Source of the DNA: Candidatus Fermentibacterota bacterium
Lineage (GTDB): Bacteria; JAFGKV01
Reading direction: 5' to 3'
Length of the DNA stretch: 64,000 nt
Assembly (NCBI GenBank): GCA_030620115.1
Contig: JAUXFG010000001.1
Location: forward strand, 9,677-73,676
In this document: positions 9,627 through 39,786 of the stretch, piece by piece
Position numbering within the stretch: position 1 is the first letter of the stretch
How the letters are laid out: the number at the start of each line of letters is the position of its first letter
Position numbers and translations under genes: made by a program
Notes under the pieces: model-generated
The model's database searches: none
What the model was told of the DNA's origin: nothing
The model's input: the letters and a program-made list of their open reading frames with translations, nothing else

Positions 9627-9657
9627 GCTGACGAAACGTTCAGTCTGGGAGGAAAGG

Positions 9658-9891: not shown

Positions 9892-9962
9892 AGCGGTTCC
9901 TTGACTCCCCGTATGTGGGAATCTATACTCGCGGGCGCATCCGCAACCGGTTAGGCCAGGAG

Positions 9963-19096: not shown

Positions 19097-20788
19097 GTGC
19101 TCAAGAAGCTCCTCATACGTAGCTTCCGTGTCGTAGAAAGCCTGGCTTTCGAGCCAGGAGGAGGACTCAACGTCATCACAGGCGAGACCGGAGCCGGTAA
19201 ATCGCTTTTGGTGGGAGCATTGGAAGCTGCTTTGGGAAGTGAAGTCACCAAAGACGATGTCCGTGATCTCGCCGAGACTGCTGCAATCGTGGCGGAGTTC
19301 GAGATTGCTCCCGACTCGCATGCATTCACCAAACTCAATGAGCTGATTCCAGGATGGCAGGGGCCAAGTCTGGTGATGGAGCGGCGAATCCACTCGAGCA
19401 GCCGAAGCTCATGCCGTGTACAAGGGAAGCAGGTGAGCCGAGAATTCCTCTCCAGGGCGGGGGCATGGCTGGTTGATTTCCATGGGCAACATTCACACCA
19501 GCTCCTGTTGACACCATCATCGCAGCTCGAGATCCTTGATGAGTTCGCGGGGTTTGGGCCCAAACGAGAAGTGGTGGCACAAGCGCACAAACGCTGGCAG
19601 GAGTTGAAACGGCTTGTTCAGGAACGCAAGGCCTGGCTCGAGAGAGCCCGCAGGGAGCGAGAGGAACGAGCCTTCCAGTTGGCAGAGCTGCGTCAGTTGA
19701 ATCTCCGCCATGGTGAGAGAGCGGAGCTGGAGAAGGATCTGAAGATCCTCGCCACTGGGCAGGATTGGAAGGAGACCTGCATCCGCGCTCGGCAAACCCT
19801 CATGGAGGAAGATGGATCCGTGGCGGAGAGGCTCGTGCACATCAGTCGTGACCTCGAGGCACTTGGAGCTCATTTCCCCGAACTCAAGAGTGGGCTTGTG
19901 GGGCTTGAGTCATCGATAGTGGAGATCCAGGAGTTCACCGACGTAATCCGCCATATCGGTGAACGCTTGACCGTGGATCCGGCGAGGCAGAGTGAGATCG
20001 AAGAGCGGCTCGCCGCGCTCATTGGCCTCGAAAAGCGATTTGGACGAGACGAAGCGGGTCTTATCGAACTGCGGCAGGAACTGGAGCATGCTGCTGATGT
20101 GCTAACCAGAGCAGACGAGGATTTGCGGGCCTTGGAGATTGAACTGGAGGGTTCGAGGAATACGCTGGAGGAGCAGGCAGCCGAATTGAGCATGGGAAGA
20201 CTCAGGGCTGCGGAGCAATTTGTCCCGAGGGTGGAGGCAGAGCTTGCGCTTCTGGGCCTGGAACGAGCGCGTCTTATCGTTCGCCTCGAACCATTGCCGG
20301 TACGTGATGGTTTTGCAGGTGACGGGAGCGGCAAGGAACGGGCTATGCTTCTCTTCTCTTCGGCACTAGAGGAGGAGCCTAAGGAGCTGGCTCGGGTAGC
20401 CAGCGGAGGCGAGCTCTCGAGAATCATGCTTGCCTTGAAGACCGTTCTTGGCGATTCCGATCCAGTTGGCGCCATGGTGTTTGACGAAATCGACACAGGC
20501 GTCGGAGGAGGGTTGGCGGCGGTTGTGGGGGAGCGTTTGCAGGCATTGGGCGCCGAGCGCCAGGTTATCTGCATTACCCACTTGGCCCCAGTGGCCAGCC
20601 GAGCGGCTCATCATTTCGTGGTGGAAAAGGACGTACGAGAACGGGTCTCTATTCAGATCAGGAGGCTCTCTCCCGAAAAGAGGATCAACGAAGTTGCACG
20701 GATGCTTGGCGGTTTTCCGCTATCCGATGAGGCATTGCGCCACGCCGAGGCTCTTCTTGACAAGACTCCCCAAGGAGGTTCCCAGTGA
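19097..20788 (+). CDS. recN: DNA repair protein RecN
   Basis: Walker A GETGAGKSLL, a long coiled coil, and a C-terminal signature. GTG start. Confidence 0.9.
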   Translation: MLKKLLIRSFRVVESLAFEPGGGLNVITGETGAGKSLLVGALEAALGSEVTKDDVRDLAETAAIVAEFEIAPDSHAFTKLNELIPGWQGPSLVMERRIHSSSRSSCRVQGKQVSREFLSRAGAWLVDFHGQHSHQLLLTPSSQLEILDEFAGFGPKREVVAQAHKRWQELKRLVQERKAWLERARREREERAFQLAELRQLNLRHGERAELEKDLKILATGQDWKETCIRARQTLMEEDGSVAERLVHISRDLEALGAHFPELKSGLVGLESSIVEIQEFTDVIRHIGERLTVDPARQSEIEERLAALIGLEKRFGRDEAGLIELRQELEHAADVLTRADEDLRALEIELEGSRNTLEEQAAELSMGRLRAAEQFVPRVEAELALLGLERARLIVRLEPLPVRDGFAGDGSGKERAMLLFSSALEEEPKELARVASGGELSRIMLALKTVLGDSDPVGAMVFDEIDTGVGGGLAAVVGERLQALGAERQVICITHLAPVASRAAHHFVVEKDVRERVSIQIRRLSPEKRINEVARMLGGFPLSDEALRHAEALLDKTPQGGSQ

Positions 20789-21870
20789 GGATCTTGCGTA
20801 ACGATTGGATGGATGTGATCTCCGCCGCCAGCCTCGGGCTCAGGGTGAGGAAGTGGGCAGTGGCGCTACCGGGTGTGGCGGCCGGATTCGTCTGGTGGGG
20901 AGTGTTTGGCTATGTCGCCCTCCTCGTTCAGGGATGGTCGTTTGCGCAGATCTGGCGTGTCTTCGGTCCCCTACCATGGATGACAAAAATGACGCTGGGA
21001 GGTCCAATCGGAACGCTGTTGTGGCTAGTGGCGGACATAGGTTCCGTGGCTGCCTGGCTTCTGGCTTCGGCCGCCATCGCGAAGATTACCTACGAGCAGC
21101 TCAAGGGCAATGAGTTCGTGAGCTGGACGGAAGCATGGACATTCTCATTGTCGCGGTGGAAAGCGCTGATCCTTACCCCCTTCACGCTGCTGGTGGGTGC
21201 AGGCCTTGCCCTGTTCTTTCTTTGGATCATATCTCTACTGGTGGGGGCGTGGCAACCGTTGGCGGGGATACTCTTCGTGTTCGCCTTGCCTGCCGCCGCA
21301 GCGCTTCTCTATATCTGTATGCTCAGTTGCCTGGCGGTTGTCATGGGGCCTGCAGTGGTTGCCAGCAGCAACAGCCTTACCCTCGAGACACTCTTCGAGA
21401 TTCTCAGTCTCCATGCGAGTCAGGGGCGAAGGAGTTGGTTCTATTCGTTGCTCTCCGGCCTTCTGGCCTCGATTCATACCGCTGCTCTGGGACTGTTCCT
21501 CGCAGTGGCGTCGTTGTTTTCGACTTGGGTCTTGGATCTGGGGCATGGGGGTATGGTGGGCCGCATGTTCAAAGCCGCGTCGGCCTGCACACCGCGGATC
21601 GCTGCGGCGATCAACGGGGTGCCGGGGTTCTTCGAATCAGTGACTCATGCAGGAGGAGTGGGCTCCCGTGTGCCTCAGAGTTATGCGCTGCTTGCAGAAC
21701 CTATCTCGTTGGGCACGGGTCTTTTGGCATTCTGGTTGCTCGTCTTGTTTTTTCTGTTAGGAGCACAGTTTGTCACGACATACACTACATGCAGTACCAC
21801 TTCATACATCGTACTCAGGCAGCTGAAGGATGAACAGAACTTGCTTGAGGAAGATCTCGGGGATGAGTAG
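20785..21870 (+). CDS. polytopic membrane protein, hypothetical
   Basis: 361 aa with at least 7 predicted TM helices and no recognised motif. Confidence 0.45.
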   Translation: MRILRNDWMDVISAASLGLRVRKWAVALPGVAAGFVWWGVFGYVALLVQGWSFAQIWRVFGPLPWMTKMTLGGPIGTLLWLVADIGSVAAWLLASAAIAKITYEQLKGNEFVSWTEAWTFSLSRWKALILTPFTLLVGAGLALFFLWIISLLVGAWQPLAGILFVFALPAAAALLYICMLSCLAVVMGPAVVASSNSLTLETLFEILSLHASQGRRSWFYSLLSGLLASIHTAALGLFLAVASLFSTWVLDLGHGGMVGRMFKAASACTPRIAAAINGVPGFFESVTHAGGVGSRVPQSYALLAEPISLGTGLLAFWLLVLFFLLGAQFVTTYTTCSTTSYIVLRQLKDEQNLLEEDLGDE

Positions 21871-23972: not shown

Positions 23973-24061
23973 CTGCTGCTCCAGAAGGGGCCTACGAAAA
24001 ATCCAAACAAGTAAGAGCGCGCCTGTGGGTGGTCAACCTGGACAGGAATTGCGAATGAGGA

Positions 24062-24217
24062 ATGTGAAATCTGATAATCTGGAATCTGCAATCTGGAATC
24101 TGGGGAAAGGGGAGAGATTCTTCGCTCCTGTCGGTCGCTCAGAATGACAGGGGTGTGGTACGAACAGATGTGGCACTGTGTGTCATTCTGAGGAAGCGGA
24201 GCGACCGAAGAATCTGG
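24062..24217. repeat. family H composite repeat, copy 3 (gaatctg tandem units plus the CAGAATGACA hairpin element)
   Basis: aatctgataatctggaatctgcaatctggaatctg followed by gagagattcttcgctcc...GTCGCTCAGAATGACAG...TGTCATTCTGAGGAAGCGGAGCGACcgaagaatctg. Confidence 0.7.
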
Positions 24218-24404
24218 GTGGGGGGAAGGCGGGAATTGAGGAATGCGGGAAGCTCGTGAGCTATTGAGCCCTTCGACTTTGCTCAGGACAGGCTGATAAG
24301 CTGTTGAGCGGGGATGGGAAGGGAAGATTGCTGGAATGGATTGGGATTCTTTGGCACATAAGACGTCATCCGCCAAAAAATTGTAACATTCCCGATGCGT
24401 CAGA

Positions 24405-25664
24405 TTACCCCTCCTTGGCCGCATATTCCTCGTACATCCAGCGATGCCCGTGCAGAGCCCTCAGTGCTTGCTTCGCATATATATTGTAGGGCTCGTCGAT
24501 GAGTATTCTCCGAAAGACTTGTTCGATTGTCTTTTTCTTGCCCGATCTGCGGCCGATCTCGGCCAAGATCTCGTAGACCCTCCATTGGCGCTTATTCACC
24601 GCCAGGAATCGTGTGGCGATCTCCTCTGCCTTGTACATGTTGCCGCCTTCATAGTACATGGTCATTACCCGTATCCACAGTTCCCAGTGGCTCTCCCAGT
24701 ATTCCGCGAGCTGCTCATACTCTCGTGCCGCCTCCAACATCATCCCCCGCCCCTCATACCCCATCCCTGCTTGGAGATGACCCACATTGAAGATCTGCTC
24801 CCGGTGTTCGGGTTTCATGAAACAGAGAGCCGACAGCAGGAGGGACGCCGCCAGAAGTACTCCGGCGCCCTTGAGAATTACCCGTTCCCTTCTGCGGACC
24901 ATTCCATGGGCTGCGATGGCTGCCACGGCAGTCAGGGAAAAGGCAAAAAAGACCTCCCCGACCTCATCGTCTGTTGCGGTAATCGGTGCACTCATGAGCC
25001 AGGCCCCCACTGCGAAGCCGGTGGCTGCACCAAAGCTGGGAACCGGAATGCCGAGTCGATAGAGAAGGCGCCCCAGGGGCTTGATGGCCCACGCGAGCAG
25101 AGGGACACCGACACCATAGATGAGCATGAAAAGGGCGCCCATGCGCCGTGGTTGCATCCACGGAGAAGAAATATTGTGGAGTGTTACCTCCATCTGTACG
25201 TTTCGTTGGAGAAAGTACTCGGGGGGGGTGAAGCCGAAGATCCGTTGTCCCCAACTGATTTCTTCCCCGGCTACGAAGAAGCTGAAAGCCGCCATGGCGC
25301 CGCAAAAGAGCATCCCAAGCCATTGGCGTTTCCGGGAGCGCCGGAAAGAGCTTCTCCCCCATAACAAGGCGCCCCACATGAGCGTCAGGAAGCCAAACCA
25401 TTCCGGTGGCGTATCCTCCATGAGCATATAACCATAGAGGGCAGGGAAGAAGAAGAGGAGTCCGCCGAACATGAGCACCAGGAGGCCGTTGACCAGAAGC
25501 TCGGGCCTTCCGAAGCGCCGGGTATCATATGATTGGTTTCCTGTGGCGAGTTGCGAAGATTCCACCCGGTCAGGCTCCTGAGACAAGAGATGTAGAGCTT
25601 TTCCCCTTCGATGCCCCCAACTTACACGAAAGCCGTGAATTGGGAAGATCCATCCATGGCACAC
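24405..25664 (-). CDS. membrane protein with C-terminal TPR-like domain, hypothetical
   Basis: Several TM helices and a conserved EEISWGQRIFGF loop, then helical repeats. The start is uncertain. Confidence 0.45.
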   Translation of the reverse strand: MCHGWIFPIHGFRVSWGHRRGKALHLLSQEPDRVESSQLATGNQSYDTRRFGRPELLVNGLLVLMFGGLLFFFPALYGYMLMEDTPPEWFGFLTLMWGALLWGRSSFRRSRKRQWLGMLFCGAMAAFSFFVAGEEISWGQRIFGFTPPEYFLQRNVQMEVTLHNISSPWMQPRRMGALFMLIYGVGVPLLAWAIKPLGRLLYRLGIPVPSFGAATGFAVGAWLMSAPITATDDEVGEVFFAFSLTAVAAIAAHGMVRRRERVILKGAGVLLAASLLLSALCFMKPEHREQIFNVGHLQAGMGYEGRGMMLEAAREYEQLAEYWESHWELWIRVMTMYYEGGNMYKAEEIATRFLAVNKRQWRVYEILAEIGRRSGKKKTIEQVFRRILIDEPYNIYAKQALRALHGHRWMYEEYAAKEG

Positions 25665-25756
25665 GGCGGGGCTGAAGCTGATACTGTGTGAGAAGGGCCT
25701 CGATCGGAGCGATTGCGGCGAAGGGCAGAATTTGCGTATGTTGCCCGCTCAGCGTT

Positions 25757-25900
25757 AGCCCGGACTTCTCACCGGCTTTCGTCGCGAAACCGTCGAGATG
25801 GTTCTGGCTGCGAGGCTTGCGACTGAGGACCCCGCAGGCGTATCCACTGTCCCGCGTCGGACGCGGGACTGCAGCCGAAAGCTGGTGAGAAGTTCGGGTT
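25757..25900. repeat. family R (REP-like) palindromic repeat, copy 1
   Basis: Contains gcttgcgactgaggaccccgcaggcgtatccactgtCCCGCGtcggaCGCGGGac. Its ends (ccggacttctcaccggctttcg / cgaaagctggtgagaagttcgg) are themselves inverted. Confidence 0.7.
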
Positions 25901-25911
25901 AGGAGGAATCA

Positions 25912-27036
25912 GTGAGCACACGCCGCGCAAGAATTGCCATCAAGAACCTCTGTTTCTCGATACTGCCTGCGCTTGTTCTTTTCGTGGGAGCGGAGGTGGC
26001 TCTTCGGCTTATTGCGCCTTTTTGGATGGAGTGTGTGCGGACCAGAGCTTGCCCGGCACATGATCACAGGCCTCTGAATCTTACCGAACAGGGACACAAT
26101 TTCAGTCTCGAGACGCATGAACCATTGTTCGTATACCATCCACGATTTTTCTGGTGGCCACGATCATATGTGCAAGGGACGTTCTGGTCGACGCCGGATG
26201 TGAAGACCAACAGGTTCGGGCTGCGAGATGATGAGGTCGACATGTCTCCCGGGAGGAGGAACATCCTGTTCGTTGGTGATTCGGTGGTGTGGGGTAGCCT
26301 GGTCTATCAGGAGGACCGATTCACGGAGAAGACGCACGCCATTCTTCAAAGCCAGCCTGAGTTCAGGGACGTCCAACTCATCAATGCAGGAGTTCTCGGC
26401 TTCTCCACCTTTCAGGTACGCACCTACCTCAAGGAAGAGGGGCTGGACCGATTCAAGCCTGAGGTTGTGGTCATTTGCGCGGGGATAAACGACAACTGGC
26501 CGTTCTCCATGTGCGACCGGGAGATCTATGCTCGTAATATGCGACTTGGCAACAGACTGAGGCGGTGGTGCATGCGGTCGGACCTCTTTCTATTGCTCGA
26601 CAGGTACGTCAATGAGCTGGCGTTGTGGGCGCGAACCGGGGAGAACCCTCAAGGATTCACATTCCTGTTCCGGGAATCGTCAGGGAAGAAGACGGTTCTT
26701 CGGAATCAACCCCATCAGACCGAGCAGAACTTGAGGGAGGCCGGCGCACTGATCGAAGCGTCGGGAGCCCGGGTCGTCATCGTGTTGGAGGACATACGCG
26801 CCCGACAACCCGGAGGTTTCGCTACGCGAAGCTTCAAGGCCGCAAGATCGAGGATCAGGCAGCTTGCCGCGCATGCGGGGTGGCCGGTCATCGAAATCGC
26901 CAAGCTCGGTCAACCCCCGATCGAGATGAAGGTGAATGACTATCTCATTGATTTTTGTCATTTACACCCGAGAGGGCACGAAGTGGTGGGGAGATGGCTG
27001 GCGGATGTGTTGACGGGAATGCTGCAAGAAGACTAA
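25912..27036 (+). CDS. membrane-anchored SGNH/GDSL-family hydrolase (paralog 1)
   Basis: N-terminal TM helix, a WMECVRTRACP motif, block I FVGDSVVWG, block III GINDN and block V DFCHLHPRGHE. GTG start with an AGGAGG RBS. Confidence 0.7.
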   Translation: MSTRRARIAIKNLCFSILPALVLFVGAEVALRLIAPFWMECVRTRACPAHDHRPLNLTEQGHNFSLETHEPLFVYHPRFFWWPRSYVQGTFWSTPDVKTNRFGLRDDEVDMSPGRRNILFVGDSVVWGSLVYQEDRFTEKTHAILQSQPEFRDVQLINAGVLGFSTFQVRTYLKEEGLDRFKPEVVVICAGINDNWPFSMCDREIYARNMRLGNRLRRWCMRSDLFLLLDRYVNELALWARTGENPQGFTFLFRESSGKKTVLRNQPHQTEQNLREAGALIEASGARVVIVLEDIRARQPGGFATRSFKAARSRIRQLAAHAGWPVIEIAKLGQPPIEMKVNDYLIDFCHLHPRGHEVVGRWLADVLTGMLQED

Positions 27037-27390
27037 CCCGAACTTCTCACCAGTTTTTGGCTGCAGTCCCGCGTCCGACGCGGGACAGTGGATACGCCTG
27101 CGGGGTCCTCAGTCGCAAGCCGAGCCCGGACCTCTCACCAGCTTCCTACCCCGCTGGAAGCGGGGCCGATATGGCTCTGTCTGCTGCGTTACGCTCCGTC
27201 AGCTTCCTCGATCCCGCGTCGGCCGCGGGACAGAGGATACGCCTGCGGGAGCCTCGGTCGCAAGCCTTGCAGCCACAACCATTTCTTCTGTCTCGCCACG
27301 GAAGCCGGCGAGAAGTCCGAGCTAACATTCAGAACCATTTCGGCCGTTTCGCTTCGAAAGCCGGTGAGAAGTCCGGCTTATCGAAGCTCC
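27034..27390. repeat. family R repeats, two tandem core copies in inverted orientation relative to copy 1
   Basis: 27067-27120 is the exact reverse complement of 25808-25861. A second core (CCCGCGtcggcCGCGGG) lies at ~27216. Arms ttctcacc / ggtgagaag are present. Confidence 0.7.
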
Positions 27391-29309
27391 GGGCGAAGCA
27401 AGAGCACCTGAATGTCGTGCTGGGCATCCTGGTACCCCACCTCAAGCTCTTCCCCTCTCATCATATCAAGACCTTTGCACACCCCCGGTTCACACCGTCT
27501 GAAGAGCTCATCAACATAGATGGCCTTGACATCTCTTGTCAGAAGCCACCCGAGCAGGTCGCGGCGCGATGTGAGTTTGCGGGGTTCGGGAAATATGGGG
27601 ATATAATCCAAGCGTGCCATGATCACGGGAGCCGGAGAGTAGGAAGCCACATTCGAACCTGCAGGGAGATGGCTGGCCAAGAAGAGAGCCGCCTGCTCGT
27701 TGGGAGCTGTGCCCAGCTCCGGGATGGAAGGGATGGAGCAGCGAGCTGGGCGGCAGAATAGGCTTTGGAGGGTAAGCAGGAATACTATGCCATAGGAGCC
27801 AATCGAGGTTCTGACTGAGTGTCTCAACGTGCCCCCATACCGATCCGATAGAATCCATATGATCGACAAGCCAAGCAGGAAGACCACGGCCGGGGCGAGC
27901 AGGCGCTTATTGACAGTGCCGAGTGCATAGATGATCAGTCCGAGCATTACGGCGCATGCTATTACCCGCTCTCGTCTCTGGTTTATTGTGGCGAATAGCG
28001 CGGCCGAACCAATGGCAGCAAGCACAAATACGATGGCGCAAGGCAGAAGGAAGTACCCCTCCCTGAAGAAGGTCACCAGGTAGGCCAGGAGATGCAAGGG
28101 CCACGCGAGCATGATGAGGAGAACGGACCATGCCCGTCTTCTGGCGAGTGCGACGATTCCGCGGACTGCGAGCAGGAGGAGCAGCGCGCCTGTTCCGTGG
28201 AGCCCCTTGCCATAGGCCACGAAAGCTTGAGCCGGCATCTGGAGGATTACATGAGTGATACGTTGAAGAAACGCCCTTGGATTCCTCCGGATGGCCTTGA
28301 GTACGGAATAGTTGTTATCCTCAGGCGTACCATAGAGATCCCGCGCCAAGGCATATCCCTCTACATAGGGATTCTCCGCCTCGCAGAGAGGACCATAAGC
28401 GACCCCTTGGCCTTGCTCAAACGCGTCGTAGAGTCTACGCTTGGTACCAACCTCGAACTCTCCCGAAAGCAACCCGACGAGCGCGATATATCCCCCAACT
28501 ATCACGGCGAATGGCGCCACGCATGCGGCGACTGATCCGAGCGTTTTCCCCCGTGCGCCATGCAGGAGAATCACAAGTATCAGTGCGGTGATGAAGAGAA
28601 GCAGCCCGTCATTCCGACAAAGTGCCGCCATGGAGATGAATACCGCGCAGATAACGAGGTGTTTCCTCAAGCCGGTGGCGGAGAACCTCAGAAACTGCCA
28701 GAGCGCAAAGGCGGAGAGAGCCGCGAAGAGCGCATCGCTGGAGTTATCCAGGATGCTCAAGAGACTGGGCGTTACCAAAAGAAGGAGCAAAGGCATGAGG
28801 GGCGATACGATGTGCTTGAGTTCGCGGCTGATGACGTAGGTGCCAAACCAAAGGAAGATGAAGATGATGATGCGGCCAAGCGCATAGGCATGCATGAGCC
28901 AGAATGGCGATTCTTGAAAAGGGATGATCGCCAGCGCCCAGAACGCGGCGACAAGCGGGTTGGATGCGTAGGTGGGGAATTCCCCGTGGAGCAGCAGCCG
29001 GCCATTGTTGAGATAGTAGGCTTCATCGAACGACCAGATGTCGGTCAGAGTGGGAAAGAAAGCGCGGAAGGTGAGAGCAAAACCTAAGGCGATGAGCAGA
29101 GCGACGCATATGGGTGGGCAGTCCCCGGGGATGAAAACATTCGATTTCCCCGGCGTTTGGCTATCGGGGATCCTACTTGATGTTCGCGTCTTGTTAGGCA
29201 AATCTATGGCCTCGCGACAGGGCTCCCTGCCATGGAAACGGGGAGCTCCGGATCTTGTCCGTGGCGAACAGGCGTCCGAGCCAACTGGGCAACCCCGAGA
29301 TCTTTCCAC
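27378..29309 (-). CDS. GT-C fold glycosyltransferase (PMT/ArnT, GT39/GT83-like) polytopic membrane protein
   Basis: At least 12 TM helices and a DE motif in the first extracytoplasmic loop (IWSFDEAYYLNNG). The track start at 29309 overlaps paralog 2, so the real start is probably an internal non-ATG codon. Confidence 0.55.
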   Translation of the reverse strand: MERSRGCPVGSDACSPRTRSGAPRFHGREPCREAIDLPNKTRTSSRIPDSQTPGKSNVFIPGDCPPICVALLIALGFALTFRAFFPTLTDIWSFDEAYYLNNGRLLLHGEFPTYASNPLVAAFWALAIIPFQESPFWLMHAYALGRIIIFIFLWFGTYVISRELKHIVSPLMPLLLLLVTPSLLSILDNSSDALFAALSAFALWQFLRFSATGLRKHLVICAVFISMAALCRNDGLLLFITALILVILLHGARGKTLGSVAACVAPFAVIVGGYIALVGLLSGEFEVGTKRRLYDAFEQGQGVAYGPLCEAENPYVEGYALARDLYGTPEDNNYSVLKAIRRNPRAFLQRITHVILQMPAQAFVAYGKGLHGTGALLLLLAVRGIVALARRRAWSVLLIMLAWPLHLLAYLVTFFREGYFLLPCAIVFVLAAIGSAALFATINQRRERVIACAVMLGLIIYALGTVNKRLLAPAVVFLLGLSIIWILSDRYGGTLRHSVRTSIGSYGIVFLLTLQSLFCRPARCSIPSIPELGTAPNEQAALFLASHLPAGSNVASYSPAPVIMARLDYIPIFPEPRKLTSRRDLLGWLLTRDVKAIYVDELFRRCEPGVCKGLDMMRGEELEVGYQDAQHDIQVLLLRPELR

Positions 29310-30451
29310 TCCCCAAGGTCAGCCCCGACCAATAGCTTCTCCAGTACCTCAGCGAGCCGCGTCGCCACGATATCATGGCCCTTTGGATGGAGATGGCAGA
29401 AATCAAGGAGGTACTCGTGTGGAACCAAGGACAATGGTGAGCTACTAAGATCCTCAATCTTGATGATTCCCCATCCTCGGTTGGTTGCCAGTCGCTCCAC
29501 TTTTGAGCGTCCGGCTCTGAATCCTTCTGGATCCCAGTTCTTTGGATGCTCGCTACGAGTGTGTTCCAGAATGATCACGACTCGCGCTCCCTGGACCTCG
29601 GCCGAATTGCCGATTTCTCTGAAATTCTCTTCCGTCTCGGAAGGCGAGTCTCGATGAATTCTCACAGGATTCCATCTCTCACGAAACAGAAAAGAAAGCC
29701 CTTCAGGATTGCGGCCAGTTCTCCGCCATTCCAGTAGTTCGCCGACGTACCGGTTGAGGAGAAGGAATACGTTTGAATGCATGAGGAAATGCTTCACACG
29801 ATATGGAGGCGACATATTCGTGCGGAAGCTCTCCCTGTCGCTCCTGTTAAACAGCCAGCTATCGTTGATGCCAGCACAGACAACAACAATCTCGGGTCTG
29901 AACCTGGTGAGGCCAACTCTCTTGAGGTATTGGAGTACCTGAAAAGATGAGAACCCGACTATGCCGGCATTGATGAGCTGTACATCTTCGAGGCCCGAGC
30001 GTCTTGAAAGGAGTTTCTGCGCTTTGTTGGAGAAACGTTCAGCCTCGAACACGAGACTCCCCCACATGACGGAGTCTCCCAGGAGGAGAACATTCCTTCT
30101 TGCCTGGGACTCGTCGATTTCGTTTCCGCGGAGCCCCAGACTGTTTGTCCGCACCTCGGGCGTTGCGCATACTGTGCCACGAATATGGGGCCGTGGCCAC
30201 CAGAACAGCCTTGGATGATAGATGGACAATGGTTCTCCCGTCTCAATCACGAAATTGCCGCGGTGCTGGGTGAAGAATACCGGATTGAAGTCATGCGGGG
30301 GGCATGCTCTCGTCCGCAGACATTCCATCCATGGTGGCGACACGATGCGGAGCCCAATCTCCATTCCAAGGAGGAGCAGCACAGCGGGAGCAACCGAAAA
30401 AAGGAGTTTCTTCCATTGCACAAGCTTCGCTACATTATTCCTATTGCTCAC
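29204..30451 (-). CDS. membrane-anchored SGNH/GDSL-family hydrolase (paralog 2)
   Basis: WMECLRTRACP, LLLGDSVMWG, GINDS and DFCHLHPKGHD. It has the same architecture as paralog 1 plus a ~40-aa C-terminal extension. Confidence 0.7.
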   Translation of the reverse strand: MSNRNNVAKLVQWKKLLFSVAPAVLLLLGMEIGLRIVSPPWMECLRTRACPPHDFNPVFFTQHRGNFVIETGEPLSIYHPRLFWWPRPHIRGTVCATPEVRTNSLGLRGNEIDESQARRNVLLLGDSVMWGSLVFEAERFSNKAQKLLSRRSGLEDVQLINAGIVGFSSFQVLQYLKRVGLTRFRPEIVVVCAGINDSWLFNRSDRESFRTNMSPPYRVKHFLMHSNVFLLLNRYVGELLEWRRTGRNPEGLSFLFRERWNPVRIHRDSPSETEENFREIGNSAEVQGARVVIILEHTRSEHPKNWDPEGFRAGRSKVERLATNRGWGIIKIEDLSSSPLSLVPHEYLLDFCHLHPKGHDIVATRLAEVLEKLLVGADLGEWKDLGVAQLARTPVRHGQDPELPVSMAGSPVARP

Positions 30452-30542
30452 TGAGACGGTCCTTTCGCGTCGACGAAGGGATATTGGTGAAAAGCACTCC
30501 TGGGCGCGGTAGTCCAGCTAACACTGCTGAGAACCGGGAGAG

Positions 30543-31673
30543 CTATGTGCCCGCCACAGGTAATGAGAGCGTATCGTCATTTGTACTTGTCATCAGCTCG
30601 TCAATCCATCCCTCTTCGATGATTCGGGTTGCGACACACTCAGCGACGCGGCGGTTTCCTTTTGCATTGAAGTGACACTTGTCTTGTGGATAGTTCTTCA
30701 TGATCCCATCTTCAGGCGCCGTGCGGTACATGTCTCGAATATCGACGAGGACCAGGGAGTCTTCTCGCTCGAGACGCTGGAGCATGGCATTGTAGAAGTC
30801 AAGTGCAAGATCATGTCTTGCATGCTGCCGCGTGATGGCCAGGAATCGTGCTCCCCTGTGTTCACAGTAGGCTTTGGCTTTCTTGATGTTCTCGAAGTAC
30901 TGGGGCGGATCGACCCGCCGTGGATAATCGAGTGAGTGCTCCCAGGGCCTTTCCTCTATGGTACTGTTAGGGACCAAGTAGAGGGTACGTGTCCATCGGA
31001 TGAAGGCACTCTTGTCAAGGAGATGGCGCAGCGTGTACATGGGACCGGCATACAGTCGTGCGAATATGCGATCGCAATAGCCGTTGGCTGGCGCATTGTC
31101 GTTACTGCCTCCCCAGTACACCACGATGTCAGGCTTCACGCGGTCGAATTCCCCGCGCAGGATTTTCAGTGTCTGGTATGAACTATGGGCGGGAATGCCA
31201 AGATTGAAGGAGGCCATTCTCTGGGTGTCATATCGCTCGGCCACCAATGAAACCAGTACATCAGGGAAGCTCTTGCCCGGTGGTGACGACCAGCCCAATA
31301 CCATGGAGTCGCCCAAGAATATCCATCGAATCGCGTCGACTCCCTGATACCGCCAGGGTGTAGTGCGAAAACCCCAGGAGTCGATTCTGATCGTTTTTTT
31401 CTCGCCGGGTTTCATGCCGGCTTTGAGCTCGATATCGGGCTTGAGGGTCCAGAAGTAGCGCTGATGCCAGACAATCTTGCCCCGTACACCGGCGAGTCCC
31501 CGGCACCGAAATACCACTGGGTCGTGCAATGCCATTCCCGGGAAATGGAATGCCCGCGCCACCAACTCTCCTGCAAGAAAAAGCACCGGGAGCGCCAAGG
31601 CGACTATGGTGAAAAATCTGGTGATTCGCCACATCCTCATATTCCTTTTCCGGGGAAGAATCCGCGCTGCCAC
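30543..31673 (-). CDS. membrane-anchored SGNH/GDSL-family hydrolase (paralog 3, divergent)
   Basis: IFLGDSMVLGWS, WGGSNDN and DKCHFNAKGN blocks, with an N-terminal TM helix. The start may be an internal Met (MRMWRIT...). Confidence 0.6.
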   Translation of the reverse strand: MAARILPRKRNMRMWRITRFFTIVALALPVLFLAGELVARAFHFPGMALHDPVVFRCRGLAGVRGKIVWHQRYFWTLKPDIELKAGMKPGEKKTIRIDSWGFRTTPWRYQGVDAIRWIFLGDSMVLGWSSPPGKSFPDVLVSLVAERYDTQRMASFNLGIPAHSSYQTLKILRGEFDRVKPDIVVYWGGSNDNAPANGYCDRIFARLYAGPMYTLRHLLDKSAFIRWTRTLYLVPNSTIEERPWEHSLDYPRRVDPPQYFENIKKAKAYCEHRGARFLAITRQHARHDLALDFYNAMLQRLEREDSLVLVDIRDMYRTAPEDGIMKNYPQDKCHFNAKGNRRVAECVATRIIEEGWIDELMTSTNDDTLSLPVAGT

Positions 31674-31856
31674 ATAGGCCGGTTCCGATCAATCTAACGG
31701 CGCAATGTGCCGACGCAACGATAGATGTGCCGCATTGTTGAGTATTCTCCCATGGAGATGGATCATGGCTCAGTCCCGGCAAAGTGGACTCTGCCCATTC
31801 TCAGCCTTAGCTTCCCAAGAGAGCAATGAAGAGAAGTACCACGAAGGAGTTGGGCC

Positions 31857-34190
31857 ATGACTAGTCGTCTTGCTTGTATGATCGTTGCCGCCATGCTCTG
31901 TGGGTCGGCACCTGCGATGACCCTTGTGGAGGAAGCTACGGTTGCCGGTGACTCCCGGGAAGCCGGGTTCGAGGCAGTACAGCTCGCGCTACGAGGAGTC
32001 ATTGATTCAGCGGTGGTGAAGACCATTGGCCCGAGGCTTGCCCAGCGTTTTCGGCGCGAGCTGGAAGCCCACATCCATGCGAGACGAAGGGCGTTCATTT
32101 CCCATTACCGAATCCCGTTTCTCGTGGATAAGCCCTATGATGGGATCACCACGAGAAAGGTCTCTGCCGAAGTCTCTCTGGAAACGTTGGCCGACACCCT
32201 CATCGCCATGGGGCTGGCCTGGCGAGATCCTGAGGGAAAGGTGGCAGGGTGCCGCGAGGTAGTGGTGAACTTCGCCGACTTTTCACCCCATGATGCACTT
32301 GCCCTGGCAAATGAGATCGAGGGCAGTGGTCTTGTGGCCCGGAACCTGGGCACAGTCGAGAAAATGGCGGGTCCCCAGATGCGCTTCTTGATTTCCGGCT
32401 CCCCATGGGACCTTGCCAGGTCTCTCGCTCAGCTTAGCGCGGAGCGGTTCTCTGTTGGTGCGGTTGCGGGAGATGTCATCGATTTGATCGCCGGCGGGGA
32501 CTTGGCTATCCGGCCTTCGGACGAACGAGAGAATCTTCCACCGCTGGAGATTATGGAGCTCTGGATTGATGAGCTTTTTCCGGCACGCCATCCCCGCTAT
32601 GCACATGAGGCTGTAGGGCGGCTGGTTGTGGCGAACCATGGCGCCCATGCCGTCAGCCATATGGATGTCGAAGTAGAGTGCCCCGCATTCCTCGAGGTGC
32701 CATGGGTGATGCATGCCGGTCCCATTGCTCCCGGCACGATCGATTCCCTGCTCCTCCTGATTCCTTTCTCAGGCGCGCGGCTTATGGCGGTCAGGGATGA
32801 AACACAAACGGTGGTCAGAGTGACCTTGACGTGGAGCCGGGGAGGAGAGGAAAAGCAGCGTGCCGCCACCACGACAGTGACTGTTCACAGTCGCAATGCC
32901 GTGGATTGGAACGATGTGAGATCCGCGTGTGCATTTGTCACGCCAAGTGCACCGGTAGTGGAAGGCGTTGCCAGAAGGGCAATGTCCACTGCGCTCCAGG
33001 GCCAGCAGGATCTTCCGGGAAGCCTTGCCAGGGCGTTCAAGATCGTGCAGGCGCTTTCGTCGTTTGAACTTGCATACACGCCCGATCCTCCCTCGCCGGT
33101 GAGTGCGGCATACGATCATATGCAATTCTCCAACGAAACGCTGCGCCTTGGGGCAGGTGATTGCGAGGATACCGCCGTGCTCTTAGGATCATGTCTGGAA
33201 AATGGGGATCTGCCGGTCCAGCTGCTTCTTACCCAGGACCATGTCTTTGCCGCGTTCAACACGGGCTTGTATTCCAAGGATGGCTTTCTGATCTCTCCTG
33301 ACCGGGAGCGATTTCTCGTGTTGGACGGGAGAATCTGGTTGCCCATAGAGACGACACTGTTGAGCCAGGGCTTTCTTCGGGCCTGGAACGAGGGTGTCCA
33401 AACCTATCGCGCTTTGGAGAAGACAGGCGATTATCTCGAGCGGGTTGATGTACGCCGGGGGTGGCGTATCTATCCTCCTGCAGGAACTCCCGGCGACGAC
33501 GGCTTCACCAAGATGCCCGATATGGCGGGGGCTTCGGCTGAGCTGCGTGCCTTGCTCTCTGCCAGGAGGAAGGCGGTGGCGGAGGTAGAGGAGCGGCTTC
33601 ATGCAGCGGTCAAGGCGCATCCCGAAGATTGGGAGTCGCTCTATAGACTTGGGGTGCTATTGGGGCGCGAGAGCAGGGCTTTCGAAGCTCTCGAATCGTT
33701 CAAGCGTATCCCCGATGGGGTGGCACTTGGCGCGCAGGCGCGAATCGGTGAAGGGAACAGTTACTTGGTTGAGTCGAAGGTTGAGTCTGCGTTGGTCAAG
33801 TATCGCCATGCCGTGGAGCTGGATCCCGATAGTCCTGTGGCGCATGTGAATCTTGGGGTGGCCTACTACCTGGGTGGAGATGAAGAGGGAGCGGTGGAGA
33901 GCTTTGCCTCGGCGGTGGACCTGCTCCCGGGAGAAGAGAAGTCGCTGGCCCATCTGCTGGGAGTGGATATCGAGGAGCTTGGCACCAAAGCTGCAGATGC
34001 ACGGCAGAGACAAGCACTCTCCAAGGGTGAACTCAGGGCGCTCATGGACAAGGTACGAAAGAAGAAGGAATGGAAAAGGCTTGCGGACCGCGGCCCGAGC
34101 CGTCACAAGTTCGCGGGAAGGAAGGCGCTGGATCCAGAGCAGCGGCTTTGTGCAGAGCGGCTCGTGTTTTGGCCCGAGATCGAAGGGTAG
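31857..34190 (+). CDS. secreted transglutaminase-like (papain-fold Cys/His/Asp) domain protein with C-terminal TPR repeats
   Basis: Signal peptide. A GAGDCEDTAVLLGSCLENGDLPVQLL...DHVFAAF...LDGRIWLPIETT arrangement resembling the TGase core. TPR-like helices in the last ~200 aa. Confidence 0.45.
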   Translation: MTSRLACMIVAAMLCGSAPAMTLVEEATVAGDSREAGFEAVQLALRGVIDSAVVKTIGPRLAQRFRRELEAHIHARRRAFISHYRIPFLVDKPYDGITTRKVSAEVSLETLADTLIAMGLAWRDPEGKVAGCREVVVNFADFSPHDALALANEIEGSGLVARNLGTVEKMAGPQMRFLISGSPWDLARSLAQLSAERFSVGAVAGDVIDLIAGGDLAIRPSDERENLPPLEIMELWIDELFPARHPRYAHEAVGRLVVANHGAHAVSHMDVEVECPAFLEVPWVMHAGPIAPGTIDSLLLLIPFSGARLMAVRDETQTVVRVTLTWSRGGEEKQRAATTTVTVHSRNAVDWNDVRSACAFVTPSAPVVEGVARRAMSTALQGQQDLPGSLARAFKIVQALSSFELAYTPDPPSPVSAAYDHMQFSNETLRLGAGDCEDTAVLLGSCLENGDLPVQLLLTQDHVFAAFNTGLYSKDGFLISPDRERFLVLDGRIWLPIETTLLSQGFLRAWNEGVQTYRALEKTGDYLERVDVRRGWRIYPPAGTPGDDGFTKMPDMAGASAELRALLSARRKAVAEVEERLHAAVKAHPEDWESLYRLGVLLGRESRAFEALESFKRIPDGVALGAQARIGEGNSYLVESKVESALVKYRHAVELDPDSPVAHVNLGVAYYLGGDEEGAVESFASAVDLLPGEEKSLAHLLGVDIEELGTKAADARQRQALSKGELRALMDKVRKKKEWKRLADRGPSRHKFAGRKALDPEQRLCAERLVFWPEIEG

Positions 34191-34195
34191 CGCTC

Positions 34196-36130
34196 GTGGC
34201 GATACCCAGGGCGTATGGCTGGTCTGCCGCCGGTGTCATGGCTGTGGGGTGGGTACTGGTGACATGTGCGCTCTCGCCTCTCATCCTGGAGGACTTGGAG
34301 CTTCGCGTTTTTGATCTTTTTCAGCGTTTGGAAGGTATCGATGAAGCCAAACGAGACGATATCGTGCTCGTCAATGTGGACGATGCGACCATCTCTGCCT
34401 TTGGATGGCCGGTGCCTCGTATAGTTTGGGCTCTGTGGCTGAATAATCTGAATGAATTCGGCCCTCGCCAGATAGGATTCGATCTTTTCCTGACACATCA
34501 CCTTTGTGATCCTGCGGAGGATACATTGTTGGCGGCGACCATGCGCGATTCCCGCCCCGTTATTCTCGCAGTCGGGCTGGCATTGCCAGAGGAGCAGAAT
34601 TACCATGAGATCGTGGTGCTCGACAGCGCGGATTTGTCTCTTGTATCCCCGTGGCCTCAACGAGAGGGGTTGGCCTTCGACTCGCGGATTCTCCACTCGG
34701 ATGTGGTCACCGAACGGCCGCTGCCTGTGCTCTTGGACTCGGCATGGGGAGCAGCCAATGTGGCATTGGATCCGGACGGCGATGGTGTGATCCGTCGGGT
34801 TCCACTGTTTACCGAGTTTGCCGATCGGTTGGCGCCGAATTTTGCGCTATCACTCTTTCTCCAGCGGCGGGGCATTGGCCTTGGCGAGCTCACCCTCATA
34901 CCCGGAATGGAACTCATCATTCCCGGAACGGCGCCGATACGTTTGGACTCCAAGTCGCGGATGATTCTGGACTATGTGGGTGGACCGGGCTCTTTTCTCA
35001 CGTTCAGCTTTGTCGAACTCCTCGATCTCTTGGATCGGGCTCTCTCTGATGGGGACGAGAAGGCCATGGAAGCGCTGAGATCGATTCGGGGGGCAACGGT
35101 CATCCTCGGAGTAACCGATCCCTCCCTCATGGACTTACCCGCCACTCCGGTGCATCCCCGATTCCCCGGTCCTGAGATACAGGCCACCGTTCTGGACAAT
35201 CTCCTGAGGGGCACGCACATAACACGGACGGGCTGGAAGGTGGAACTGCTCCTTGCATTCCTTCTCTCGCTCCTCGCGTCAGCAGTGGGGTTACGACTTC
35301 GTCCCGCCACGGGGGCCGCCGTAGTTATTGTCGTGGCAGTAGTCTTCTTGGTGGCCGTTTTCCTGCTTGGCACGCAGCACAACCTATGGGTTGGATCTGT
35401 GGCTGCTCTAGTGGCCGTCGCAGGGAGCTATGGCGCCAGTGTCACCCTTGAACGATTGGCGCGGGAGAAGGAGCAGCGGCTTGTGAAGGATGCGTTCGGC
35501 AAATATGTGTCGCCGGCCGTGCTCAAGGAGCTCCTCCACGATCCCAGTTCCGTACTGAGTGGGGCGGGACAGAAGAAAGACATCACGATCATTTTCTCGG
35601 ATGTAAAGGGCTTCAGCAGACTATGTGAAGAGCACGAGGCTACGGCGCTCCTCACGCAACTCAATGAATATCTCTCGGAGATGACCGAGATCGTGTTCAT
35701 GCATGGGGGGACTGTCGACAAGTTCATGGGTGACGGGCTCATGGCCTTTTTTGGCCATCCGGCCATCCTGGATGATCATGCTGCAAGGGCAGTCCGCGCG
35801 GCCGTTGAGATGCAGCGGAGGTTAGGGGAACTGAGGAAGCGGTGGGAAGAGGAAGGGAGACTTCAGTTCCGCATCAGGGTTGGGGTGAACTCAGGTCAAG
35901 TCATAGCCGGGAGTATGGGTGGCGCCGGAAAGATGGATTATACGGTCTTCGGGCGAAGTGTAAATCTGGCACAGCGTCTCGAGGCTGGTTGTGATACCGA
36001 TGGTGTGCTGGTGAGCGAGCGGACGCTCTTGGAAGCTGGATTGGAAACAGACCAGGCGCAGGCGAAAACCATCCATGCGAAGAATATCGGAGAGGTGACG
36101 GCCTTTCAACTGCCTATGGGGGTTCCGTGA
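34196..36130 (+). CDS. CHASE2 sensor domain - class III adenylate/guanylate cyclase
   Basis: N-terminal TM helix and a CHASE2-like periplasmic region. Cyclase core motifs IIFSDVKGFS...GDGLMAFFG...RIRVGVNSGQVIAG. The start is taken at the GTG just after the upstream stop; the track ORF begins at 34070 inside the previous gene. Confidence 0.75.
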   Translation: MAIPRAYGWSAAGVMAVGWVLVTCALSPLILEDLELRVFDLFQRLEGIDEAKRDDIVLVNVDDATISAFGWPVPRIVWALWLNNLNEFGPRQIGFDLFLTHHLCDPAEDTLLAATMRDSRPVILAVGLALPEEQNYHEIVVLDSADLSLVSPWPQREGLAFDSRILHSDVVTERPLPVLLDSAWGAANVALDPDGDGVIRRVPLFTEFADRLAPNFALSLFLQRRGIGLGELTLIPGMELIIPGTAPIRLDSKSRMILDYVGGPGSFLTFSFVELLDLLDRALSDGDEKAMEALRSIRGATVILGVTDPSLMDLPATPVHPRFPGPEIQATVLDNLLRGTHITRTGWKVELLLAFLLSLLASAVGLRLRPATGAAVVIVVAVVFLVAVFLLGTQHNLWVGSVAALVAVAGSYGASVTLERLAREKEQRLVKDAFGKYVSPAVLKELLHDPSSVLSGAGQKKDITIIFSDVKGFSRLCEEHEATALLTQLNEYLSEMTEIVFMHGGTVDKFMGDGLMAFFGHPAILDDHAARAVRAAVEMQRRLGELRKRWEEEGRLQFRIRVGVNSGQVIAGSMGGAGKMDYTVFGRSVNLAQRLEAGCDTDGVLVSERTLLEAGLETDQAQAKTIHAKNIGEVTAFQLPMGVP

Positions 36131-36520: not shown

Positions 36521-38200
36521 ATGGGGCGTTCACCGGTATTCGTGCTCGGACTCGATGGTGCAGCATGGCCGGTGGTGCAGCCTTTGATCGATAAGGGTGC
36601 TCTCCCATTCCTGGGGAGCTTGGTGGACAACGGGGCATGGGGTACCTTGGAGGCCCCATGGCCGTGGGCCACTTTTCCGTCGTGGACAAGCATCATGACG
36701 GGCACAACCCAGGGGGTGCATGGTCTCCTTGATTTCAGCGAGCTCGATCCCGCCACAATGCATGTGCGTTTTGTCGATTCCACGTGGCGTCGGGTACCGG
36801 CGATCTGGCAGCTTGCCACAACGAGGGGAAAACGATCCGTGGTTCTCGGGGTACCGGGAACCTATCCCCCTGACAGAGATGTGGAGCTCATGATTTCCGG
36901 CTTTGATACCCCGGTGACCACCAGCATTGATCCGACATTTGTCTGGCCTCCGGACTTCCGTACTCGATTGTTCAGAGAGGTGGGCCGGTTTCCCCTGACG
37001 CCGGTACAAGAGCTGCGCATTGGGAAGGGGTGGCATCGGAAGGCGCTTGCGGCGTTGCTGGAGAGCATCCAGGGGAAGACTCGAGTCGCACGATTTGTTC
37101 TCGAAGAGCTCCACCCCGATTTATTCGTCATGGTATTCGGGGAATCGGATACGGTGTGTCACCACTTCTGGCATTTTGCGGATCCCAGGAGTCCCCGGGC
37201 AGAACCAGGCCTTCGCCCTGAGTTGCGGACCGCCATTGAGCAGGTCTATACGGCGCTGGATAGCGCACTCTCAGAGATCGTGCAGAGCTCGAGATTGGCG
37301 CCTACTGTTCTGCTGGTTTCGGATCATGGATTCGGCGGCGCGGGAAGTACGGCGCTTCACCTCAACCGGTTTCTTGCATCCCATGGCTTCCTTACATTCG
37401 GATCACGTGCCGCCTTACCGGCTGTTTTTTCTTCGGTGCCCGCCACGATGCTGCCCTTTTTCCCACGGACCCTGCAGCAGTGGGTCTTTCGCAAGGCGGG
37501 GTCAAAGATGATTCCGCGGCTCGAAGGTCGGCGCAGATTTGCGGGGATTTTGTGGCAGGAGACGTTGGCCTATTCTGAGGAGTTGAACTATGCTCCTGCG
37601 ATTCGGATCAATCTGCGCGGTCGCGAGCGAGGTGGCGTGGTTGCGCCTGAGAAATATGAAGAGGTCCGGGAGCGGATTACGGCGGCATTGCGGGCATGGA
37701 GGGACAAGAGGACGGGCGAGCCCGTGGTAAGGAGAATCTTTCGGAGGGAAGAGCTCATCCAGGGGCCCGCGGTCGAGAAGGCGCCGGACCTTCTCCTGGA
37801 ATTGCATGCCCCTGGAGGATACTCGTATGTGGTGCTTCCCTCGGAGGGGAAAACGGAGCCGGTGCAGGAAGAGATCGACAGCGCTGGATCGAGTGGGGCC
37901 AAGGGCAGGGGAATGCACGGGAGCCACCGGCGGGAGGGGTTTTTTGTCGTCTCCGGCAAAGGCATTTCCCGGGGGGCGCTGCAGAACCCGGTGCAGGCGC
38001 ATCAGGTGGCGGGAATTGTCCTTGCGGAGTTAGGTCTTTCGCTTCCGTCCTGGATCTCTCTGCCCCCTCCAGGGGTGCTTATGCATGAGCCCGAGATAGA
38101 AGCGGGAGAAGAGCATGCCCAAAGAGGTGAATTAGTTGACCGCGCGGGAGATCTGGCATGGGAACGCACCAGGCGCCTGAAAGATCTTGGATATCTATGA
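36521..38200 (+). CDS. alkaline-phosphatase superfamily phosphohydrolase/phosphomutase (COG3379-like, type I phosphodiesterase/nucleotide pyrophosphatase family)
   Basis: N-terminal VFVLGLDGA metal-ligand block, SGFDTP and VSDHGF motifs. Confidence 0.65.
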   Translation: MGRSPVFVLGLDGAAWPVVQPLIDKGALPFLGSLVDNGAWGTLEAPWPWATFPSWTSIMTGTTQGVHGLLDFSELDPATMHVRFVDSTWRRVPAIWQLATTRGKRSVVLGVPGTYPPDRDVELMISGFDTPVTTSIDPTFVWPPDFRTRLFREVGRFPLTPVQELRIGKGWHRKALAALLESIQGKTRVARFVLEELHPDLFVMVFGESDTVCHHFWHFADPRSPRAEPGLRPELRTAIEQVYTALDSALSEIVQSSRLAPTVLLVSDHGFGGAGSTALHLNRFLASHGFLTFGSRAALPAVFSSVPATMLPFFPRTLQQWVFRKAGSKMIPRLEGRRRFAGILWQETLAYSEELNYAPAIRINLRGRERGGVVAPEKYEEVRERITAALRAWRDKRTGEPVVRRIFRREELIQGPAVEKAPDLLLELHAPGGYSYVVLPSEGKTEPVQEEIDSAGSSGAKGRGMHGSHRREGFFVVSGKGISRGALQNPVQAHQVAGIVLAELGLSLPSWISLPPPGVLMHEPEIEAGEEHAQRGELVDRAGDLAWERTRRLKDLGYL

Positions 38201-38593
38201 GCGGTGTCAGGGTTCGCGCAAGAATCAGCACTAACAACGGCCATGACGGAGTATGGCCCTCCAGAGGGGGATGCGTACATCTTGTCCTGTGGAGGGACGA
38301 CCTCCGTGTCGTCCGCAGAACTAGGCCCAAGAATCTCACGACTTTCTGCCTGAATCAACAACTCCGCAACCCGAAGTCCGTGAGCCACTGCCCTTGAGCA
38401 GAACCGAATGGCGAGAATGACTATGACGGCCAATGTCCTCCATCTTCCATCGGCATCGGCATCGAATTGAGGTGTGATCACATGGCCCTCAGTCGCGGAA
38501 ATCCGGATGTTTGATGAAGGCGCGCGCAACGGTGTGGCTGATTTTGATAGCGATTCCGATGATGCTCAGCTGAGAGCAGGGAGCAGAGAGCTC

Positions 38594-39775: not shown

Positions 39776-39786
39776 CGGGCATCCTC

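Follow-up and report, generated by a model that had tools for sequence, protein, structure and literature searches.

Three SGNH hydrolase paralogues encoded around a predicted GT-C glycosyltransferase in a Candidatus Fermentibacterota bacterium

Gene order at the locus

We analyzed a stretch of 64,000 nucleotides from a Candidatus Fermentibacterota bacterium (assembly GCA_030620115.1, contig JAUXFG010000001.1, positions 9,677 to 73,676; hereafter the window) in which genes for three SGNH hydrolase paralogues, P1, P2 and P3, surround a gene for a polytopic membrane protein with the predicted fold of a GT-C glycosyltransferase (GT). All four open reading frames (ORFs) were recovered where an initial annotation, made from the sequence alone, had first placed them (Table 1).

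P3, P2 and GT lie in that order on the minus strand, with P3 as the first gene. They are separated by 91 nt between P3 and P2 and by 2 nt between the P2 stop codon (TAG, 29206-29204) and the start of GT, spacing that indicates a compact operon. GT begins, as called in the public record, at the TTG codon at 29201 in place of 29309; this is most likely its true start, and GT therefore does not overlap P2. P1 lies on the opposite strand and converges on GT across a gap of 341 nt, while a gene for a possible accessory membrane protein, mem419, is divergent from P1. A promoter and terminator scan of positions 24000-32200 returned no more sites than were found in shuffled sequence.

Table 1. Features of the window and of related loci. 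Positions refer to the window unless a related locus is named.
Feature	Position	Strand	Remarks
P1, SGNH paralogue	25912..27036	+	374 aa; convergent with GT
GT, predicted GT-C fold membrane glycosyltransferase	27378..29201	-	607 aa, TTG start
P2, SGNH paralogue	29204..30451	-	415 aa
P3, SGNH paralogue	30543..31634	-	363 aa in the public record; longest ORF 376 aa, to 31673
mem419, possible accessory membrane protein	24405..25664	-	divergent from P1; 5-7 transmembrane helices, TPR-like C-terminus
YfhO/sulfatase-type SGNH clusters	L004 8245-15808; L017 1624-14517; L019 4770-9262
Peptidase_M6-SGNH-ABC loci	L010 1898-8991; L011 7658-12640; L018 1810-7187
CAT-family gene	L002 13041-13700		same strand as GT
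777-aa protein	31857-34190	+	divergent from P3
CHASE2-sensor adenylate/guanylate cyclase	34070-36130	+	follows the 777-aa gene
Type I phosphodiesterase/nucleotide pyrophosphatase-family protein	36521-38200	+
GT4 gene	from 38474 (region 38474-39775)
Peptidase_C25 (gingipain-like) protein	39709-46155	+	2148 aa
Protein of the same Peptidase_C25/CARDB architecture	L004 1-4052
Wzx-type flippase (Polysacc_synt), FemAB-like Acetyltransf_6 protein, another GT4	49653-53813
361-aa protein	20785-21870	+	six hydrophobic segments
tRNAs Pro-GGG, Pro-CGG, Arg-CCT, Val-GAC	4426-10040		single genes between protein genes

Three SGNH paralogues and a membrane glycosyltransferase

P1, P2 and P3 are true SGNH/GDSL proteins. 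Their scores against the Pfam family Lipase_GDSL_2 (52.9 bits for P1, 42.9 bits for P2 with E = 9.9e-11, and 51.6 bits for P3 with E = 2.1e-13) all exceed the gathering cut-off of 32.9 bits, and P3 additionally matches Lipase_GDSL (E = 2.4e-9). Besides this profile score, the proteins show the remaining hallmarks of the superfamily: firstly, the block I serine, within GDS (residues 122-124 of P1, 125-127 of P2 and 108-110 of P3); secondly, the block II glycine; thirdly, the block III GxND motif (G[IS]ND: GIND from residue 191 of P1 and 194 of P2, GSND at 176-179 of P3); fourthly, the block V DxxH motif (D[FK]CH: DFCH from residue 347 of P1 and at 350-353 of P2, DKCH at 318-321 of P3); and finally the fold. 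The predicted catalytic residues of P1, Ser124 and His350, are encoded at nt 26281-26283 and 26959-26961. Pairwise comparison bore out the relationships proposed in the initial annotation. P1 and P2 align over 361 aa without gaps at 50% identity (E = 8e-143), in keeping with the long collinear blocks reported between them, and the motifs quoted for these blocks are present; P3 is more divergent (22% identity to P1, E = 9e-12; 25% to P2, E = 9e-16) yet keeps the catalytic blocks. Across 18 members of the P1/P2 family, G122-D123-S124, G163, N193-D194, D347 and H350 (P1 numbering) are invariant, as are four cysteines, C41 and C47 (in WMxCxRTxAC), C189 and C349.

The N-terminal anchor ascribed to each paralogue is likewise apparent, as a single hydrophobic segment that follows K/R residues (approximately residues 8-35 in P1, which also carries the conserved WMxC-x5-C motif). 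A basic N-terminus with a hydrophobic helix fits either an N-in, C-out anchor or a signal peptide and would place the catalytic domain outside the cytoplasm, with which the four invariant cysteines are consistent. An AlphaFold2 (AF2) model of P1 (predicted local distance difference test, pLDDT, 84.5) has the canonical three-layer alpha/beta/alpha, flavodoxin-like SGNH fold. The structures nearest to this model were lipase/acylhydrolases of a generic kind and carbohydrate esterases (CE2, CE3 and acetyl-xylan esterase types), and AlgX, AlgJ and DltD, proposed earlier for comparison, were absent from the top 60 structural matches; a Foldseek search agreed, with a match to TesA (E = 2e-10). Unlike small SGNH esterases such as TesA/TAP, the E. 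faecalis structure 1yzf and CE2/CE3 enzymes, the window proteins add the N-terminal membrane helix, the WMxC-x5-C motif, a beta-rich stretch of ~40 residues that precedes block I and, inserted between blocks III and V, ~100 mostly helical residues.

Homologue searches covering 5.8 billion protein clusters yielded only ~18 clusters of close P1/P2 relatives (45-55% identity), the named ones being 'Candidatus Fermentibacteria', and only 5 homologues of P3. In a neighbour-joining tree, P1 grouped with a protein of the related locus L002, and P2 with a protein from a Fermentibacteria metagenome-assembled genome (locus L001, 61% identity); SGNH proteins encoded beside Peptidase_M6 genes were separate, and P3 formed a distant sister group with a protein of locus L019. 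These groupings indicate that the three SGNH genes of the window are old paralogues and not recent duplicates. P2 also gave weak matches to the Leptospira LA_2490 and LA_2486 SGNH families of NCBIfam (E = 2e-4 and 6e-3; 21 bits against a cut-off of 325).

Judged from its model, the central protein has the GT-C fold and, as expected of such enzymes, an acidic first outer loop. It has ~12-13 hydrophobic helices, in agreement with the 12 or more noted at first, and ~13 transmembrane (TM) helices in the AF2 model (predicted template-modelling score, pTM, 0.90; pLDDT 89.8). In this model the first loop (residues 44-100) contains two short helices, the first starting at D59; a large loop spans residues 247-307; and an alpha/beta domain of ~105 aa forms the C-terminus (500-607). 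The acidic loop motif that had been recognized in the initial annotation is FDE at residues 58-60, within FDExxYIN in the loop after TM1. D59 is invariant among 32 homologues and E60 is at least 90% conserved (D59-E60, nt 29027-29022). Further conserved columns comprise N153, S155 and D156 (NxSDALF, 153-159) and R196 and G199 (RNDG, 196-199), along with RxYxAFEQGQG (256-266), a motif specific to the GT family.

The fold bears out the earlier description of GT as PMT/ArnT-like, whereas its sequence does not. The best match in the PDB by Foldseek was ArnT (5f15; E = 2.9e-8, TM-score 0.52/0.58), followed by STT3/OST (oligosaccharyltransferase), AglB, ALG9/12, Emb, PglB and Pmt, and the top ~30 matches were all GT-C enzymes at probability 1.00. 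GT resembles ArnT (GT83) and the wider GT-C clan in its ~13 TM helices and small C-terminal domain, predicted to be extracytoplasmic, and it shares with the clan (PMT_2/GT39, STT3/PglB/AglB, Emb, ALG9/12) the conserved acidic pair in the first outer loop after TM1. By contrast, the match to PMT_2 (PF13231) reached 19.4 bits (E = 1.3e-3), below the cut-off of 26.1; a profile search against the PDB at E <= 10 found no chain besides one chance match; and hhalign against E. coli ArnT (MG1655) gave a probability of 0.6%. Since sequence methods fail to place it, GT cannot be filed in GT83 or GT39, and it further differs from ArnT in its own RxYxAFEQGQG loop motif. Its relatives among 5.8 billion proteins make up only ~43 clusters (32-87% identity), nearly all 'hypothetical' proteins without a Pfam domain; two family members bear a precomputed PMT_2 domain. 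A weak match links GT to the Leptospira LA_3751/LA_3752 putative glycosyltransferase family of NCBIfam (E = 5.8e-5; 22 bits against a cut-off of 200); these Leptospira families, like those matched by P2, are likewise an uncharacterised membrane glycosyltransferase and anchored SGNH proteins. By analogy with other GT-C enzymes, GT would most likely use a polyprenyl-phosphate-linked sugar donor.

Genomic contexts of the two families

Inspection of related loci revealed a recurrent association, in which SGNH genes of these subfamilies adjoin a GT-C gene in roughly three independent settings, spanning two SGNH subfamilies and two unrelated GT-C families. The first consists of the window and its close relatives L002 and L022. 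The left flank of the window is made up of housekeeping genes (DXS, NAD kinase, RecN, YacP), then CpsB. Synteny with this flank was found in L002, a metagenome contig of 55 kb, which reads CpsB, mem374, an SGNH gene orthologous to P1, and GT, with neither P2 nor P3. LptF and LptG are encoded near the L002 locus, which indicates a diderm envelope. L022, a 2.8-kb contig whose DNA is ~90% identical to the window, carries an orthologue of P3 directly upstream of GT. It has lost P2 cleanly between two 11-nt microhomology copies, with a 10-codon ORF as remnant (window 29220-30423 against L022 650-660). Downstream of GT, L022 matches window positions 32787-32619, inside the gene for the 777-aa protein (79% identity), and not P1. 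The locus has thus been rearranged between close relatives.

In the second setting, represented by L004, L017 and L019, the SGNH genes lie beside RuvCAB and QueA, together with a YfhO-type GT-C gene and genes for large sulfatase-family proteins of 524-766 aa. L004 and L017 each have three or more SGNH genes of the P1/P2 type, while in L019 a P3-type gene (53% identity to P3) stands beside the sulfatase and YfhO genes. A radical SAM gene is part of the L004 cluster, and L017 encodes additional GDSL-like proteins (586 and 449 aa) that are divergent.

The sulfatase-family proteins weakly match the phosphoethanolamine transferases CptA/EptA, and these matches, together with ArnT as the best structural match of GT and the Lpt genes of L002, would fit an Arn/Ept-like modification of lipid A or the lipopolysaccharide (LPS) core: GT would add a sugar to lipid A, the SGNH proteins would de-O-acylate it or remodel its acyl chains, and the sulfatase/EptA-like enzymes of the relatives would add phospho-substituents. 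We regard this as very improbable. The window has no arnA/B/C/D-like genes, the profile comparison of GT with E. coli ArnT was unsuccessful, GT matches OST and ALG enzymes nearly as well as it matches ArnT, and the CptA/EptA matches are far below the family cut-offs. To our knowledge, moreover, neither of the established lipid A deacylases PagL and LpxR belongs to the SGNH proteins.

The third setting is a carbamoyltransferase cluster of a distant lineage (L037), with the order carbamoyltransferase, 231-aa protein, anchored SGNH protein, DUF5672, GT-family member, 618-aa protein and a GT2 that is ArnC-like and carries two TM helices at its C-terminus. GT2 was in fact the commonest neighbour of GT-family genes. 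It was found in the flanking sequence retrieved for 19 of 79 metagenomic loci, mostly directly adjacent and on the same strand, and such neighbours indicate a glycan-synthesis context without proving a donor synthase. We considered the GT2 neighbour as a polyprenyl-phosphate-sugar synthase of the ArnC/GtrB type in general, and dropped this assignment because the C-terminal TM pair was found only in the L037 copy.

Other members of the SGNH family occur in different company. A third subgroup has a conserved order of Peptidase_M6 (immune inhibitor A-like), SGNH, ABC_tran_2 and ABC_tran, which suggests that this subgroup serves another function; the arrangement was seen in Fermentibacteria, in Eisenbacteria and on one unassigned contig. 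L001 and L020 have no glycan genes beside the SGNH gene.

We compared these arrangements with two known extracytoplasmic schemes. Three-component (Gtr-like) glycosylation employs a polyprenyl-phosphate-sugar synthase, a flippase and a GT-C enzyme (PMC11127046), as exemplified by the YfhO/CsbB/GtcA systems (PMC8035078). The loci described here share with it a GT-C enzyme as the presumed extracytoplasmic transferase, nearby GT2 genes in related loci, the ArnC/GtrB-like C-terminal helices of the L037 GT2, and YfhO itself beside SGNH relatives. Unlike in these systems, the window GT has no adjoining GT2 gene or recognizable flippase; conversely, the three-component scheme as described has no SGNH partners.

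The second scheme is envelope O-acylation by MBOAT-SGNH and AT3-SGNH systems, such as PatA/PatB/Ape1, AlgI/J/X, DltB/D, OatA and OafA/B, in which an extracytoplasmic SGNH protein is paired with a membrane acyl-translocase (PMC12148441). Here the likeness lies in an extracytoplasmic SGNH domain with a Ser-His-Asp triad (predicted for the window proteins); these systems act on envelope polymers, and some of their SGNH components are membrane-tethered. In the window, unlike in such systems, the neighbour is a GT-C enzyme and not an acyl-translocase, and the top structural neighbours are generic esterases. A scan of every polytopic protein and of all but ~23 shorter ORFs of the window revealed no recognizable MBOAT or AT3 acyl-translocase, so that the standard envelope O-acyltransferase scheme is not realized in cis. 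The locus resembles parts of both paradigms and lacks a defining feature of each.

The SGNH proteins could nevertheless be O-acyltransferases of the PatB, AlgJ/AlgX or DltD kind that acylate the product of GT, with acyl groups supplied by an unrecognized membrane partner or a lipid donor. The established pairing of SGNH proteins with acyl-translocases speaks for this, and a candidate partner could be mem419, if not an MBOAT or AT3 protein encoded elsewhere. mem419, which probably starts internally near residue 49-58, has no match in Pfam, NCBIfam or the PDB. Its TM domain belongs to an unannotated family that counts 4086 representatives when the limit is set at E <= 1e-3; at E <= 1e-10 there are 605. 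The residues invariant in this family are E83, E88, E134, E135, Q157, E159, H163, N164, E234 and E237, with the motifs GEEISWGQR, QxExxxHN and ExxE, and the invariant acidic and histidine residues all fall in loops predicted to face outward, which counts in favour of such a role. Further points in favour are the divergent pairing of mem419 with a P1-type gene in two genomes; two family members of ~890 aa (P0133 and P0188) fused to a PMT_2 GT-C domain, although these GT-C partners fall outside the family of the window GT; and, in L002, a CAT-family (chloramphenicol acetyltransferase-like) gene just upstream of GT. The last occupies the place held in the window by P2 and P3.

Against this stand the result of the acyl-translocase scan, the lack of detectable similarity between mem419 and MBOAT or AT3 proteins, and the distribution of the mem419 family, which numbers thousands while a relative (59% identity) adjoins SGNH and GT genes in L002 only. 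With pairing confined to the window and L002, mem419 was rejected as a general companion of either the SGNH or the GT family. An acyltransferase role therefore seems improbable to us, and the SGNH proteins are more probably esterases than acetyl-CoA-dependent transferases, given that no MBOAT/AT3 partner was recognized nearby.

A possible role in envelope glycoconjugate decoration

We tentatively propose, at a probability of about 0.45, that the locus serves periplasm-facing decoration of an envelope glycoconjugate in a diderm, Fermentibacteria-like bacterium. Drawing on a sugar donor linked to polyprenyl phosphate, GT would glycosylate an acceptor at the outer surface of the cytoplasmic membrane, with D59/E60 of its first outer loop acting as a catalytic or metal-binding site. 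The acceptor might be a protein, a polysaccharide (lipid-linked or nascent) or a glycolipid of the lipid A/LPS type, and in this last case the lipid A model above overlaps with the proposal. P1, P2 and P3 would each be anchored in the same membrane by a single N-terminal helix that leaves the Ser-His-Asp domain on that outer side as well. There, probably as esterases, they would most likely take O-acyl groups off the shared glycoconjugate or its lipid-linked precursor, or shift them. Multiple paralogues could supply different site or substrate specificities. The main support for this reading is the recurrence of the pairing, to which the operon coupling adds. The GT2 neighbours of related GT genes, as signs of a glycan-synthesis setting, and the wealth of envelope genes in the window region also favour it. 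The narrower suggestion of the initial annotation, O-acyl editing of a mannosylated or arabinosylated acceptor, found no specific evidence: no acyl-translocase was recognized among the window ORFs scanned, and no donor-synthesis genes adjoin GT in the window.

Several observations weigh against the proposal. Within the locus, P1, being convergent, is not co-transcribed with GT; a GT2 gene of the kind that adjoins other members of the GT family is absent from the window, as judged by a profile built from those neighbours; and no flippase was recognized next to GT, nor a GtrA-type gene among the scanned window proteins. In the relatives, P2 has been deleted from L022 while the rest of the operon was kept, and the GT2 neighbours other than the L037 copy have no TM helices and hence no ArnC/GtrB-type C-terminal pair. 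Of the 79 GT-family loci, 54 extend for 1.5 kb or more beyond the gene on one side, and only 3 of these 54 have an SGNH neighbour; L006, L007 and L008 encode GT relatives without one. The SGNH relatives, for their part, also occur in Peptidase_M6/ABC contexts or alone. The idea of a dedicated SGNH/GT-C system, put forward at the outset, thus stands in so far as the pairing recurs in three settings and falls short in the 51 of 54 GT loci from which it is absent. The gene orders sampled are also few, and several are syntenic and hence not independent.

These observations raise the alternative that the adjacency is coincidental or loosely regulatory, with the SGNH proteins acting as independent periplasmic or surface esterases or lipases and GT decorating an unrelated envelope molecule. 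The SGNH proteins might then be acetyl-esterases on imported acetylated oligosaccharides, or lipid hydrolases of the lysophospholipase type. The generic lipases and esterases nearest to P1 in structure, the scarcity of SGNH genes beside GT relatives, the separate Peptidase_M6-SGNH-ABC_tran_2 context (three loci), the nearest relative of P2 (in L001) with no GT nearby, the dispensability of P2 in L022 and the small, partly syntenic sample all accord with it. We judge this main rival to be less likely than envelope decoration: ~6 of ~10 distinct SGNH loci have a GT-C gene within three genes, and two GT-C families are involved; only 2 nt separate P2 from GT, and P3 directly precedes GT in L022. 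GT-C genes are typically few per genome, and esterases that scavenge nutrients are not usually tethered to a membrane for good.

A bolder version of envelope decoration is that, in Fermentibacteria-like bacteria, anchored SGNH proteins and a GT-C enzyme are two parts of a previously undescribed extracytoplasmic machine that operates without MBOAT/AT3, the SGNH proteins de-acylating or trans-acylating the lipid-linked donor or the fresh GT-C product, and the mem419 family possibly providing a third part. This seems improbable to us.

Envelope genes abound in the window region, including CpsB, GT4 genes, Wzx and a FemAB-like acetyltransferase (Table 1). Several further features were recorded alongside. 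The 777-aa protein has C-terminal TPR repeats; its residues ~253-540 match the N-terminal part of the NCBIfam model for anti-phage ProA (E = 4e-16, with a score far below the cut-off), and a GDCED...H stretch resembles, by eye, a putative transglutaminase-type Cys protease core. The first ~120 nt of the cyclase ORF coincide with the end of the 777-aa ORF, so that the cyclase probably starts later. The Peptidase_C25 protein, ~8 kb from the SGNH genes, has six CARDB repeats, and a protein of the same architecture is encoded immediately upstream of the SGNH/YfhO cluster in L004. The 361-aa protein has no Pfam match and is kept at the same place in L002, between RecN and the YacP/NYN gene. Rfam and tRNA scans of the window found nothing beyond the four tRNAs of Table 1, which lie far from the locus.

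The SGNH and GT-C superfamilies are known, whereas these particular families are uncharacterised, rare and all from uncultured lineages. In the literature searched, a direct SGNH/GT-C pairing was not described, and searches for SGNH with YfhO or for the motif EEISWGQ returned nothing relevant. The mem419 family, very large, unannotated and occasionally fused to GT-C domains, is the most interesting by-product of the analysis. If the link between the SGNH proteins and GT is not real, the locus amounts to three esterases beside an orphan GT-C enzyme. If it is real, it would represent a new combination of glycosylation with acyl editing at the outward side of the membrane, and it would open a way into the envelope chemistry of a candidate phylum.

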